The translations under genes were made by a program, and so were the position numbers. Of a DNA stretch of 64,000 nt, positions 40,685 through 43,771 are shown piece by piece. The stretch covers positions 1 through 64,000 of the IMG/VR virus record IMGVR_UViG_3300033066_000693. One strand, written 5' to 3'. The notes under the pieces were generated by a model that saw only the letters and a list, made by a program, of their open reading frames with translations, was not told the origin of the DNA and searched no databases. The stretch's first letter is position 1. Each line of letters begins with the position of its first letter. Source of the DNA: a virus.

Positions 40685-41530
40685 ATGTCCAGCACCAAGG
40701 TTCGTATTTTTTCGACTACTTCCAGACAAGCCATGCAGCGAGCCAATGACTCGGCTGTTGCCGCCAATCTCCCGTCAATCCTTCCTGAGAACTTGCTTCT
40801 TGGGCTAATGCGTTCTCCTCAAGGGGGTATGCGAGCCTTCTTGGAAAACCTGCTCCCAGTTGACGAGCTTTCCGCTCGTATCATAGCTTCATTCTCTCGA
40901 AACTCTGGGCAAAGCGGCAACCAAGGCGCAAGTCTGCCTCTTTCTCCTGAACTTCGCAAGATTTGCCTTGCTGCTGAACACGAGGCCAAGGATGCTGGTC
41001 ATACTGAAATCGAGCCTCAAGATCTTCTGCTGGCGATTTCTCAGTTTCCCAATCAGTCGGCTGGCATGTATCTGTCCTTCTACGGCTTGACTCGGGACAA
41101 TCTCAAGGCAGAAATCGCTGCTGAAACGAATGCCGCAACGCTTGTTCCTGCCCCTGCTGCGGTTCCTGCTCCCGCTGCTGTTACTGCACCAACTCCGACT
41201 CCTGCGCCTGCTGCTAAAGCGTCTTGCAAGAGCGGATGCGGTTGCGCTGCTCCTAAGCAGTCAGCCACGCCAGAAGATCAAGCAATCAAGGCTCTGATGC
41301 AAGCTCTTGGTCAAAGCACCTCAAATGGTGTTGATGACGAGCTTGTTGAATGGTTCAAGGTCTTGCAAGAAGCGATTATGATCGCCAAGCAGACAGGCAT
41401 GGCCGTTCCTGCCGCCTTTGTTCAAGCAACAATCATGTCGCAGACCGTTTACAACAAGGAAGCTAAGGCGCAAATCCGTCAAGAGGCGCTCCACGACGCC
41501 ATTGAACGGGTTCTCGCGCTCGCTCACTAA
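40685..41530 (+). CDS. Clp N-terminal (Clp_N) double-repeat domain protein with Ala/Pro-rich linker
   Basis: two Clp_N-like repeats (LLLGLMRSPQG, LLLAISQFPNQ). Confidence 0.5.
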   Translation: MSSTKVRIFSTTSRQAMQRANDSAVAANLPSILPENLLLGLMRSPQGGMRAFLENLLPVDELSARIIASFSRNSGQSGNQGASLPLSPELRKICLAAEHEAKDAGHTEIEPQDLLLAISQFPNQSAGMYLSFYGLTRDNLKAEIAAETNAATLVPAPAAVPAPAAVTAPTPTPAPAAKASCKSGCGCAAPKQSATPEDQAIKALMQALGQSTSNGVDDELVEWFKVLQEAIMIAKQTGMAVPAAFVQATIMSQTVYNKEAKAQIRQEALHDAIERVLALAH

Positions 41531-41982
41531 TGAAGCTCATCGTTGCTCCAACCGAATATAAAGGAAGAGATCGCATCCGTCTATTCATGGGCGGAGGGAT
41601 TTCTAACTGCCCTCTCTGGCAAGATACCTTTGCGCGATATTTTGCCGACCAACCAGATGACGTTGTTCTCGTCAATCCTCGAAGAGATGATTTTGACGTA
41701 ACAAACAAGGCGATTGAAGAGCAGCAAATCAAGTGGGAGTTTGCGCAGTTGCGTCATTGCAACAGGGTTTGTTTCTGGTTTCCTTGCGAAACTCTGTGTC
41801 CAATCACTCTTTTCGAGCTTGGCGACATGCTGCATTCCAGCAAAGCCAAAGTCTTTGTTGGATGCCATCCTGATTACAAGCGAAAGAGAGACGTAAAAAT
41901 CCAAGTCGCTTTGAGAAGACCAGAGATTGTTGTTGTCCCTAGCATCAAACAACTTGCTCTTCTAGTCAAAGCCTCGTTCTAG
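41530..41982 (+). CDS. nucleoside 2-deoxyribosyltransferase-like protein
   Basis: FMGGGIS ... W ... QIKWEF ... CFWFP ... TLFELG pattern. Confidence 0.5.
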   Translation: MKLIVAPTEYKGRDRIRLFMGGGISNCPLWQDTFARYFADQPDDVVLVNPRRDDFDVTNKAIEEQQIKWEFAQLRHCNRVCFWFPCETLCPITLFELGDMLHSSKAKVFVGCHPDYKRKRDVKIQVALRRPEIVVVPSIKQLALLVKASF

Positions 41983-41996
41983 ACATCTGCCTTCTG

Positions 41997-42010
41997 CAAG
42001 ACTAGACTTT
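41997..42010 (+). promoter_or_regulatory. conserved motif CAAGACTAGACTTT (copy 4)
   Basis: 33 nt upstream of the 42043 start. Confidence 0.35.
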
Positions 42011-42042
42011 TAGAGCAATTCTGTTAGGCGTTAGGAACAAAA

Positions 42043-42795
42043 ATGAACTGGTCAATTCTCAGGAAAATACCGAATGAACCCTTCCTTGGCGAAAAACAAG
42101 CCAAGGGAACTCATTTGATTGCTGGGGAATTGGCTCAGGCCTATTGGAACCTGCAAGTCGAGTTCATGGCCCTAGCGCAAGGTTTTGGCTGCGTTCCTGT
42201 CATTCTGCCAACCATTGAACCAGCCAAGATCTATACAGACAAGGCTGGGCCAGAAGTGGCTGGTCAGATGTACGTATTCAAGGATAAGGGAAACCGAGAT
42301 CTTTGTCTACGACCTGAGGCAACGGCAACTTGCCAACTTCTCGCTCAAAACGTCTACAAGACCTACTCCAACCTAAAGCTCTGCTATTGGCAGAAATGCT
42401 TTCGATATGAACAGCCTCAAGCTGGTCGCTATCGAGAGTTTACTCAGTTTGGAGTTGAAGTCCTGAATCCTAAGCAAGATTGGACTGACGAGTTGATATC
42501 TCTTGCTCATTGCATGATCAAGATTGCTCTTGGAGAAACTGTTCAATCAACCGACGCCAAGGGAATCGTTCCTGAGATTAACCGTGGAGTAAAGCGGGGC
42601 TTAGGAATCTACACTGACGAAGGCTTCGAAATTTCCATTGCTCAACTCGGAGCGCAGAAGCAAGTCGCTGGCGGCGGTCCTTATGAGAATGGACAAGGGT
42701 TCGCAATTGGTATTGATCGTCTCCTTTGCGTTGACGGAGTTGTTGAACGCTGGGGCAAACCGGAATACGTCACTCATTTGACGGTGAAAGCATAA
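42043..42795 (+). CDS. class II aaRS catalytic-core paralog, HisRS/HisZ-like (no anticodon-binding domain)
   Basis: LRPEATA and motif 2 FRYEQPQAGRYREFTQFGVE; only 250 aa. Confidence 0.55.
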   Translation: MNWSILRKIPNEPFLGEKQAKGTHLIAGELAQAYWNLQVEFMALAQGFGCVPVILPTIEPAKIYTDKAGPEVAGQMYVFKDKGNRDLCLRPEATATCQLLAQNVYKTYSNLKLCYWQKCFRYEQPQAGRYREFTQFGVEVLNPKQDWTDELISLAHCMIKIALGETVQSTDAKGIVPEINRGVKRGLGIYTDEGFEISIAQLGAQKQVAGGGPYENGQGFAIGIDRLLCVDGVVERWGKPEYVTHLTVKA

Positions 42796-42796
42796 G

Positions 42797-43771
42797 ATGT
42801 TTGATAAGTTCACAGATCGCGCTCGCAAGGTAATGGCTCTTGCCAATCAAGAAGCACAAAGATTCAACCACGAATACATTGGTTGCGAGCATATCCTGCT
42901 TGGACTTGTAAAAGAAGGTTCCGGCGTTGCAGCAAACGTGCTAAAGAACTTGGATTGCGACCTGCGCAAGGTTCGGCTCGAAGTTGAAAAACTCATTAGA
43001 AGCGGCCCCGACATGGTGACGATGGGCAAGCTTCCAATGACTCCTAGAGTCAAGCAGGTCATTGAGAATGCAAATATTGCCGCAAAAGACTTGCGACACG
43101 TTTATGTTGGTACTGAACACATCTTGCTAGGACTTTTGAAGACTCCTGATAATGTAGGAACTCAAGTCCTTGTAAATATGGGATTGTCTCCTGAGGTAGT
43201 CTATGAAGAGATTATCAATCTCTTGGGAGCAGGAGAAGATCCATTGCCTCCTCCGGACCCGTATCTAGTATCAGTAGATGAACTTGCAGAGCGGGCGCAT
43301 AGAGGGCAGACCCGTAGCAACGGACAGCCTTACATCAATCATCCTCGTTCGGTAATGAATCGCCTCAAGAGGGCTGGTATTACTGATCCTATTGTATTGG
43401 CAACTGCATTGTGCCATGACATTGAGGAAGATACGGAGATAACTCCTATCGAGATTGAACTGTTCGCTGGTCCTAAGGTTCGTGAAGCTGTTCGTCAGCT
43501 TACAAATAAGGTTCCTCCGGGCACTTCTTTCGAAGCAAAGACTGCGAGCATGCTTGAACACGCTCGTCATTACAACGATATTGCTAAGCGGGTAAAGCTA
43601 GCAGATCGCTATGATAACCTTGCTGATGCTGTTTTTGAATGGCAGCCTGACAGGGTACGGCGATATGCTATTGCTGGTATGAAGCTCTTGGATGCAATGT
43701 CTCCCATGCCAGAAGATATGAAAGCATTTGAGGCGGAAGCTCGCCGTTTCTTTAGTTGCTTGATCCCCTGA
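42797..43771 (+). CDS. fusion of Clp_N double repeat with RelA/SpoT-type HD (p)ppGpp hydrolase domain
   Basis: Clp_N repeats (EHILLGLVKEGSG, EHILLGLLKTPDN); HD domain RAHRGQTRSNGQPYINHP ... ALCHDIEEDT. Confidence 0.65.
   Translation: MFDKFTDRARKVMALANQEAQRFNHEYIGCEHILLGLVKEGSGVAANVLKNLDCDLRKVRLEVEKLIRSGPDMVTMGKLPMTPRVKQVIENANIAAKDLRHVYVGTEHILLGLLKTPDNVGTQVLVNMGLSPEVVYEEIINLLGAGEDPLPPPDPYLVSVDELAERAHRGQTRSNGQPYINHPRSVMNRLKRAGITDPIVLATALCHDIEEDTEITPIEIELFAGPKVREAVRQLTNKVPPGTSFEAKTASMLEHARHYNDIAKRVKLADRYDNLADAVFEWQPDRVRRYAIAGMKLLDAMSPMPEDMKAFEAEARRFFSCLIP

Follow-up and report, generated by a model that had tools for sequence, protein, structure and literature searches.

A viral gene predicted to join a ClpC-type N-domain to a Mesh1-like small alarmone hydrolase

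Introduction

Small alarmone hydrolases (SAHs) of the Mesh1 type have been described to act on ppGpp, pppApp, NADPH and 3'-phosphoadenosine 5'-phosphosulfate (PAPS) (PMC9765508, PMC12934728), and MESH1 was recently reported as a PAPS phosphatase (PMC12934728). Among the phage-encoded SAHs, PaSpo is experimentally active, and phage SAHs neutralise toxic small alarmone synthetases (toxSAS toxins) (PMC7229694, PMC9712102). For the N-domain of the unfoldase ClpC, residues E32/E106 and T7 have been defined experimentally as parts of the phosphoarginine (pArg) pockets, K85 and the groove bind cyclic peptides and the adaptor MdfA, and the pArg-pocket residues also touch the ClpC M-domain in the resting state (PMC12583610). 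ClpC2 of Actinomycetota, a stand-alone homologue of the ClpC1 N-terminal domain (NTD), is a pArg-responsive repressor and an antibiotic decoy, and thus documents a Clp_N paralogue as pArg sensor and competitor pool (PMC13345244, PMC10030653). Here we describe a gene that is predicted to carry both types of module in a single protein. It is located at positions 42797-43771 (+ strand) of a 64,000-nucleotide stretch of viral DNA (IMG/VR record IMGVR_UViG_3300033066_000693, positions 1 to 64,000), hereafter referred to as the window.

No description of a fusion between an SAH and ClpC or Clp_N was found in the literature searched, matches among the INPHARED records extend over at most 62% of the fusion protein, and none of the matching viral structures of BFVD, which include many stand-alone SAHs, has the Clp_N plus SAH architecture. 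Both modules are known individually; their combination seems to be undescribed, and has been seen so far in one clade of huge phages. From its sequence and predicted structure, the protein is read here, at a probability of roughly 0.55, as a two-module host-takeover protein, in which a (p)ppGpp-type hydrolase would be joined to a reader or sponge of pArg ligands, the two modules being largely independent. Within this composite, we are highly confident of the folds and moderately so of the hydrolase substrate, but have low confidence in the precise role assigned to the N-domain.

Organization of the Clp_N-SAH fusion gene

42797..43771, + strand: Clp_N-SAH fusion gene, 324 aa plus stop (Pfam, phmmer against PDB, AlphaFold2, Foldseek)
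42797..43228, + strand: ClpC-type N-domain with two Clp_N repeats, aa 1-144 (Pfam, PDB, Foldseek, residue analysis)
43229..43264, + strand: Pro-rich linker AGEDPLPPPDPY, predicted to be flexible, aa 145-156 (low predicted local distance difference test score, pLDDT; low family identity)
43265..43768, + strand: Mesh1-like SAH, HD_4, aa 157-324 (Pfam, phmmer, Foldseek, motifs)

Pfam identified in this open reading frame (ORF) two Clp_N repeats at aa 1-147 (2.1e-28; 98.7 bits, cut-off 20.7) and HD_4 (PF13328) at aa 162-278 (6.5e-7; 29.6 bits, gathering score 27.2), and partial matching to TIGR00691 spoT_relA (7e-14) as well as a match to PHROG 990 (7.6e-27) was also obtained. By phmmer against PDB, aa 1-147 matched the N-domains of Bacillus subtilis ClpC and Mycobacterium tuberculosis ClpC1 at 1e-48 to 1e-37. 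The AlphaFold2 model (29-sequence alignment) has a mean pLDDT of 92.6 but a predicted template modelling score (pTM) of 0.59, and its pLDDT drops under 50 at aa 147-149, as would be expected of two well-defined domains connected by a flexible Pro-rich linker. In Foldseek comparison, the N-half of the model was superposed on ClpC1 NTD with a template modelling score (TM) of 0.89-0.94 and a root-mean-square deviation (rmsd) of 1-2 A, and the C-half on the whole of MESH1 (3nr1, 5vxa, 9chy) with TM of 0.80-0.82 and rmsd of 2.4-2.5 A over about 172 aligned columns; the matches of the C-half include the NADPH and PAPS complexes of MESH1, 5vxa and 9chy. The original prediction of a double Clp_N repeat followed by a RelA/SpoT-type HD domain in the ORF at 42797 is thus borne out by Pfam, PDB phmmer, motifs and AlphaFold2/Foldseek.

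Pfam found Clp_N, HD_4 and HD only, and neither an AAA domain nor a RelA_SpoT (p)ppGpp synthetase domain was detected in the ORF, which stops at 324 aa after the HD domain. Since no AAA+ modules follow its ClpC-like N-domain, the fusion does not count as a Clp ATPase. An assembly or frameshift artefact was ruled out, because at least 10 contigs carry the identical ORF and the same architecture recurs in 13 diverged clusters; the four places shown for the identical protein come from four different samples. The mean pairwise identity across the fusion family is 68% for the HD half, 57% for the N-domain and 26% for the linker. This conservation of both halves, together with the split relatives described below, suggests that both modules are under selection and that each is able to work alone.

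The hydrolase module

Human MESH1 (3nr1, 5vxa) is the best solved relative of the HD half (phmmer against PDB, 7e-19), followed by weaker matches to Listeria Lmo0812, Drosophila Mesh1, the hydrolase domains of long Rel/SpoT proteins and bacterial SAHs; the (p)ppApp-specific Aph1 was matched at 1e-5 and bacterial antitoxin-type SAHs at about 1e-6 to 1e-7. The HD motifs of the fusion are H168-R-G-Q, P-Y-I-N-H182-P, H207-D208-I-E-E211-D212 and K-L-A-D270-R-Y-D-N274, and all the hydrolase signature motifs quoted earlier for this ORF are present. In the alignment, the Mn2+ ligands of MESH1 (H35, H61, D62 and D122) correspond to H182, H207, D208 and D270 of the fusion, its catalytic E65/D66 to E211/D212, R24 to R173, and N126 to N274. 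With all the Mn2+-binding and catalytic residues in place, the loss of metal ligands that the original prediction had named as the observation to speak against it was not seen. The Mn2+ and catalytic motifs are likewise retained in the fusion clusters and in closely related stand-alone SAHs. Judged from these residues, the HD module is an apparently intact Mesh1-type SAH with everything expected of an active RelA/SpoT-type hydrolase, and manipulation of the stringent response by a phage hydrolase may reasonably be inferred.

In the composite interpretation, the hydrolase module (aa 157-324) would act on (p)ppGpp, and probably also on (p)ppApp, stripping off the 3'-pyrophosphate in a Mn2+-dependent manner during infection; with the alarmone removed, the infected cell would be prevented from entering the stringent state. 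ppGpp inhibits PRPP (phosphoribosyl diphosphate)-utilising enzymes of purine salvage and synthesis. Its removal would free the nucleotide and NAD salvage that depends on PRPP from this inhibition, and the phage PRPP synthase and NAMPT (see below) would boost the same salvage; bringing its own PRPP synthase and NAMPT, the phage would profit from ppGpp removal.

SAHs occur widely in both phages and giant viruses, and stand-alone forms are common in phages (INPHARED and BFVD matches). The hydrolase could instead be an anti-defence enzyme that detoxifies the products of toxSAS or CapRel ((pp)pApp and 3'-pyrophosphorylated tRNA CCA ends), with Clp_N as a passenger or stabiliser. PaSpo of Salmonella phage SSU5 neutralises toxSAS toxins and has been used so experimentally (PMC9712102, PMC7229694), SAHs cleave pppApp besides ppGpp (PMC9765508), and the window contains other counter-defence-like genes, namely NADAR, and NAMPT plus PRPP synthase for NAD reconstitution. 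However, the genes around the SAH, in the window as in eight related loci, include none with a RelA_SpoT synthetase domain, so that a SAS or toxSAS gene is not near the fusion in any locus checked, and the closest solved relative is Mesh1 rather than Aph1 or the antitoxin-type SAHs. This reading, which we consider unlikely, is compatible with the composite interpretation, and the two are not mutually exclusive. A toxin-antitoxin pairing of the fusion SAH with a toxSAS was ruled out, as the synthetase gene is absent from every neighbourhood checked.

Alternatively, the HD domain might, in the manner of metazoan MESH1, remove the 2'/3'-phosphate of NADPH or PAPS within a phage island of NAD and nucleotide-cofactor genes. 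Human MESH1 is the best solved match by both sequence and fold, including the complexes 5vxa and 9chy, MESH1 and a bacterial SAH (XccSAH) hydrolyse NADPH, and MESH1 has been reported to act on PAPS (PMC12934728, PMC9765508). The neighbours PRPP synthase, NADAR, DUF4326, NAMPT and PARP fit such an island, as does a strong adenosine 5'-phosphosulfate (APS)-kinase domain fused to a nucleotidyltransferase downstream in three related loci (L005, L008 and L010). On the other hand, the APS-kinase gene of these loci is absent from the 64-kb window, and the NADPH phosphatase activity of a bacterial SAH coexists with alarmone hydrolysis; we hold phosphatase action as the main function to be distinctly unlikely. 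The toxSAS and the NADPH/PAPS alternatives concern the choice of substrate only, and both are compatible with the anatomy.

The N-domain: pocket residues and origin

The fusion N-domain contains the pArg-pocket equivalents T6, R8, E31, T82, K86, T106 and E107. Alignment was made of 15 phage N-domains and 71 Planctomycete ClpC N-domains (ClpC numbering hereafter). T7, R9, E32, T105 and E106 are invariant in all 15 phage N-domains, K85 is kept in 12 and T81 in 11 of them, T31 is variable (C30 in the fusion protein), and the R122-equivalent M-domain contact is not conserved. At the groove position F80, all 71 Planctomycete ClpC sequences have Phe, whereas 9 of the 15 phage N-domains have Gln and the fusion has Met (M81). 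In ClpC1, F80 is needed for tight binding of cyclomarin and rufomycin, and lines a groove implicated in substrate binding.

A scan for similar N-domains covered one genome per species. The best 80 loci of this species-level scan belong to Planctomycetota only, and the top matches are full-length ClpC (about 823 aa) of Brocadiia/Scalindua with 66-69% identity. In Brocadiaceae S225, a UVR-motif McsA-like gene and an ATP:guanido phosphotransferase gene (McsB, 9e-65) precede clpC, indicating that the pArg-tagging pathway exists in the closest bacterial lineage. Planctomycetota also encode AAA-less Clp_N proteins, in which one to several Clp_N pairs are combined with UVR, HIT, PF05635 or ClpX zinc-finger domains. 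The phage N-domains were monophyletic in a tree with ClpC only; after addition of the AAA-less paralogues, they intermixed with these, and the mixed clade was sister to Brocadiia ClpC in a neighbour-joining tree of Clp_N pairs, which is a low-resolution distance tree of about 147 positions. The AAA-less paralogues have Gln80 and Arg5, as most phage N-domains do, and also keep the pArg residues; the fusion protein itself has M81 and K4 at these signature positions, unlike the family-level pattern. The description that suits the fusion N-domain best is that of an AAA-less type of ClpC N-domain, for which, as judged by these comparisons, the source may be ClpC or a paralogue. Between these two, the Q80/R5 signature favours the paralogues over direct capture from a host ClpC.

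Among the cellular genomes, Planctomyces sp. SH-PL14 (CP011270, locus L098) carries a 502-aa AAA-less multi-Clp_N gene (6001-7509) directly upstream of clpC (8261-10822). The Clp_N-effector fusions of Planctomycetes together form a large uncharacterised family.

Within the composite interpretation, the N-domain (aa 1-144) would bind pArg-marked proteins, adaptor surfaces or other pocket ligands of the host McsA/McsB-ClpC pathway. As no ATPase is attached, such binding would compete with ClpC, the domain serving as reader or sponge. The flexible linker would let the modules act apart, so that the fusion would provide co-expression or co-localisation, not a new catalytic mechanism. Manipulation of host Clp proteolysis, as suggested in the original prediction, is plausible from the sequence, with the qualifications that the N-domain groups at least as well with AAA-less paralogues as with ClpC, that it has lost F80 while keeping the pArg-pocket residues, and that the 281-aa protein encoded upstream is of another, diverged family lacking the pArg motif.

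A different use of the N-domain would be docking on the host Clp machinery (the ClpC M-domain or AAA1, adaptors, or the ClpP core), through which proteolysis would be inhibited or re-programmed, or the SAH delivered for timed degradation. In resting ClpC, the pArg pockets and K85 of the N-domain touch both the M-domain and AAA1 (PMC12583610), and K85 is found in 12/15 phage N-domains; SPO1 Gp53 is cited in PMC10030653 as a phage modulator of ClpCP that works through the N-domain; and the stand-alone Clp_N proteins of plastids (ClpT), of which 4y0b is a weak phmmer match, bind ClpP/R rings. Because the R122-equivalent contact with the M-domain is not kept and the N-domain groups at least as well with the AAA-less paralogues as with ClpC, docking appears very improbable.

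Fused and split forms in related phages

Among the best 120 database matches, the Clp_N plus HD_4 architecture was found in 14 clusters of 319-335 aa with 49-100% identity, the 13 clusters beyond the identical one showing 49-62%. The identical protein is recorded on contigs of up to 258 kb, and the contigs of the fusion clusters, 106-505 kb in size, share the same neighbourhood. The conserved gene order is DUF4326, NADAR, an unknown protein of about 150 aa, the diverged Clp_N protein, optional genes, Clp_N-SAH, an optional PRPP synthase, and a membrane-like protein of about 230 aa. The optional genes between the two Clp_N genes are a nucleoside 2-deoxyribosyltransferase-like gene (in most relatives, absent in L005) and a HisRS-like core (in L008 and L009; absent in L005, L010, L011 and L013), and the two Clp_N genes lie next to each other on the 505-kb contig.

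The search with the HD half identified, in the same phage neighbourhood, stand-alone SAHs of 171-192 aa with 57-69% identity. In L013 and L014, a 206-aa orthologue of the fusion N-domain and a separate 171-aa SAH are encoded with two genes between them; L011 has a 191-aa SAH only, and the start of this SAH resembles a remnant of Clp_N repeat 2. These relatives with split modules or no N-domain indicate that the SAH does not need the N-domain, and the facultative fusion speaks against a mechanism in which the two activities must be coupled. The original interpretation, namely phage manipulation of both the stringent response and host Clp proteolysis, is supported in part: its anatomy was right, and the set of HD residues is complete.

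The same evidence bears on the possibility that Clp_N is a sensor, in which binding of pArg or pArg-proteins switches the activity or oligomeric state of the SAH and so couples alarmone removal to proteotoxic stress. ClpC2 offers a precedent of pArg-controlled oligomerisation (PMC13345244), the fusion is kept in 14 clusters with invariant pArg-pocket residues, and the heat-shock response of B. subtilis involves both (p)ppGpp and the induction of ClpC (PMC7098656). Nevertheless, the model has no confident inter-domain interface (pTM 0.59; the linker is disordered and variable), and related phages use an SAH without a fused N-domain. Little likelihood is left for such a switch.

Stand-alone ClpC-type N-domain proteins of about 200-235 aa were also detected in other large viral contigs (63-66% identity), in LR756511.1, in the cultured mycobacteriophages Myrna (gp251) and Phabba, and as PHROG 35667. 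In LR756511.1 (L096; 595 kb, deposited as 'uncultured phage'), the 208-aa stand-alone N-domain gene is located at 3001-3627, two genes downstream of a 560-aa AAA+ ATPase (541-2223). Some relatives of the window encode, a few genes downstream of Clp_N-SAH, a protein that combines an APS-kinase domain (2e-56 in L005) with a cytidylyltransferase-like one (L005:10276-11214, L008:10639-11583, L010:12256-13230).

The second Clp_N protein and the gene block

40685..41530, + strand: second Clp_N protein, 281 aa (Pfam, phmmer, AlphaFold2, Foldseek, family alignment)
40706..41140, + strand: diverged double Clp_N fold, aa 8-152 of the 281-aa protein (AlphaFold2, Foldseek, alignment)
41222..41245, + strand: Cys motif SCKSGCGC, aa 180-187 of the 281-aa protein (alignment)
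41270..41527, + strand: C-terminal helical domain, aa 196-281 of the 281-aa protein (alignment, AlphaFold2)

A second, stand-alone Clp_N protein had been noted 1.3 kb upstream of the fusion. The protein is real, as supported by its predicted fold, and its ORF stops 1,266 bases before 42797, but it belongs to a diverged family, has extra parts and lacks the pArg motif. Pfam gave a weak Clp_N match (1e-5, one repeat); in an exhaustive phmmer search of 1.8 billion representatives, aa 9-145 matched multi-Clp_N proteins at about 1e-17, and about ten full-length relatives were found. There was no matching phage record in INPHARED. In the AlphaFold2 model, the block mean pLDDT for aa 8-152 is mostly 86-97, with one loop at about 67, and this fold matched the N-domains of ClpC1, ClpC and ClpB with TM of 0.80-0.88 at about 20% identity (Foldseek). 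The pArg motif G-T-E-H is replaced by L-P-E-N and E-P-Q-D, and is variable across the family.

The Cys motif, C-G-x2-C-G-C in most family members, is situated within a disordered, variable, Pro/Ala-rich linker (pLDDT below 50 for aa 163-193), and is a possible metal or redox site. In the four-helix C-terminal domain of the family, which includes S-V-P-A-A-F and I-R, W223, P242 and F245 are invariant and R265 is nearly so. By alignment and modelling, the 281-aa protein represents a different, strongly diverged Clp_N family with extra parts.

Both Clp_N genes are parts of a co-directional, tightly packed gene block on the + strand at about 38.6-45.8 kb, of which the following members and associated features were identified, together with two genes of related theme elsewhere in the window.

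38594-38911, + strand: DUF4326 gene
39664-40167, + strand: NADAR gene
40177..40650, + strand: 157-aa gene with kinase-like motifs (synteny, alignment)
41530..41982, + strand: nucleoside 2-deoxyribosyltransferase-like gene (Pfam 3.4e-15), between the two Clp_N genes
42043..42795, + strand: HisRS/HisZ-like class II catalytic core, 250 aa (hisS 2.7e-40, below cut-off; HisZ 8e-21)
43829..44815, + strand: ribose-phosphate diphosphokinase (PRPP synthase; NCBIfam 382 bits, cut-off 297; Pfam), immediately downstream of the fusion
45852..45881, + strand: strong terminator-like hairpin with a 13-bp stem, closing the co-directional block
30147-31733, + strand: WGR-PARP gene
56138-57712, + strand: NAMPT gene

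Genes of the block are translationally coupled: the TAA of the 281-aa ORF overlaps the next ATG by 1 nt, and the ATG of the fusion lies one base after the TAA of the preceding gene. This preceding gene, the 250-aa HisRS/HisZ-like core, has no anticodon-binding domain, and stands between the two Clp_N genes just before the fusion and PRPP synthase region.

The 157-aa gene is located directly upstream of the diverged Clp_N gene in 6/6 related phage loci aligned. Its product has the invariant motifs of a Gly-rich stretch, G-x-K49-x-Y, E98-T99, G-D131-F-x3-N136-C-G and D148-F-G-x-H-S, and their resemblance to a minimal protein-kinase core is a lead from the alignment; no Pfam, PHROG, PDB sequence or PDB-profile match backing a kinase reading was obtained. 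The 157-aa protein with kinase-like motifs, the 281-aa Clp_N protein with the Cys motif and Clp_N-SAH might form a phage trio of phospho-mark writer and readers intercepting McsB-ClpC, linked to alarmone removal. Clp_N would in such a trio be a portable pArg reader recruiting enzymes, as the Clp_N-effector fusions of Planctomycetota hint by analogy. Prospects for a system of this kind are slender.

Other features of the window

The genes of the window are almost all on one strand. PHROG matches include an NAD-dependent DNA ligase, a helicase, methyltransferases, an RNA ligase, NAMPT and WGR-PARP, and in addition several HNH/LAGLIDADG homing endonucleases and a TnpB-like transposase. A dense NAD/ADP-ribose theme is apparent from WGR-PARP, NAMPT, NADAR and DUF4326, plus PRPP synthase. 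The WGR-PARP of the window is 72% identical to that of the 505-kb contig, and 55% identical over the full length to that of LR756511.1.

The mobile-element genes (TnpB-like transposase, HNH and LAGLIDADG homing endonucleases) are located on the + strand at 11144-12322, 13673-14419, 15968-17014, 36934-37686 and 38947-39588, and such inserts are present or absent between closely related contigs (L001 and L002). Six tRNA genes were found in the window. Four tRNA-Glu genes (two TTC, two CTC) stand in a row at 47905-48244 (+ strand), and just downstream, at 48493-49356 (+ strand), is a GluRS/GluQRS-like catalytic domain of 287 aa, which scores 282 bits for gltX (cut-off 290) and has no anticodon-binding domain. 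A tRNA with the anticodon CTA (amber suppressor; ARAGORN label Pyl) is at 24364-24438 (+ strand). Recoding of amber codons in the window is unsupported, as TAG ends 15 of the 59 scored + strand genes and in-frame read-through continuations are not in excess.

Evaluation of the composite interpretation and its significance

Several points weigh against the interpretation of Clp_N-SAH as a two-module host-takeover protein. With respect to the hydrolase, the promiscuity of Mesh1-type enzymes implies that (p)ppGpp may not be the relevant substrate. With respect to the N-domain, we infer pArg binding from a handful of conserved residues; one of the two pArg pockets may be impaired, given the variable T31 (C30 in the fusion), and the conservation of pocket residues could reflect another ligand, as these residues contact the M-domain in the resting state. 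The fusion is kept across 14 clusters at about 50-60% identity to the window protein, and this persistence suggests an advantage of linkage that the model of independent modules leaves unexplained. As to its setting, the window resembles a portion of a huge phage genome but contains no virion structural gene, so that its assignment to a phage comes from the gene content and from relatives such as LR756511.1; the host is probably a member of Planctomycetota, on the sole basis of protein similarity.

Phage SAHs and detached ClpC N-domains are each known, and this family links both physically, in a host phylum where Clp_N domains join many different effectors. It offers a compact, soluble-looking test case for the question whether the Clp N-domain is a general pArg-reader module bolted onto enzymes, and raises a second question, whether phages counter McsB-ClpC degradation by mimicry. 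For both, nature supplies ready-made controls in the fused, split and N-domain-less variants. If the hydrolase is active on (p)ppGpp, the huge phages of Planctomycetota would join the viruses that silence the stringent response while raising the supply of PRPP and NAD.

Comparison with known systems

Mesh1 and other SAHs, including the phage proteins PaSpo and PbcSpo, resemble the fusion in having a single HD_4 domain, no synthetase, and the same H..HD..ED..D..N motifs. The fusion differs from these in the addition of a 144-aa ClpC-type N-domain at the N-terminus, and in not being encoded beside a toxSAS gene.

The N-domains of ClpC and ClpC1 share with that of the fusion the same fold and the pocket equivalents, with 47-50% identity for B. 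subtilis and M. tuberculosis and 66-69% for Brocadiia, but are followed by AAA+ modules (D1, M-domain and D2) that the fusion lacks, and in the fusion F80 is changed to Met and T31 to Cys. The AAA-less Clp_N proteins of Planctomycetota are closer in design, both being Clp_N plus effector, and include a fusion with a nucleotide hydrolase (HIT); the identity is 65-72%, Q80/R5 is shared at the family level, and the pArg residues are retained. These proteins differ in that they are cellular and usually have several Clp_N pairs, and none is listed with HD_4; the likeness gives ancestry, not mechanism.

ClpC2 is similar to the fusion in that its Clp_N is detached from the unfoldase, and it keeps the pArg site and competes for the ligands of ClpC1-NTD (PMC13345244, PMC10030653). 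The match between the fusion N-domain and ClpC2 (phmmer 3e-12 to 7e-9) is, however, far below the similarity to ClpC, and the order is different: in ClpC2, a DNA-binding part at the N-terminus precedes a C-terminal Clp_N with a dimerisation helix, whereas the fusion has Clp_N first and the enzyme at the C-terminus. The stand-alone N-domains of phages (PHROG 35667, Myrna, Phabba, LR756511.1 and IMG/VR contigs), about 200-235 aa in size, are 43-72% identical to that of the fusion, and have a short C-terminal tail in place of the SAH. Among the split forms, the N-domain protein of L013 is the direct orthologue of the fusion N-domain.

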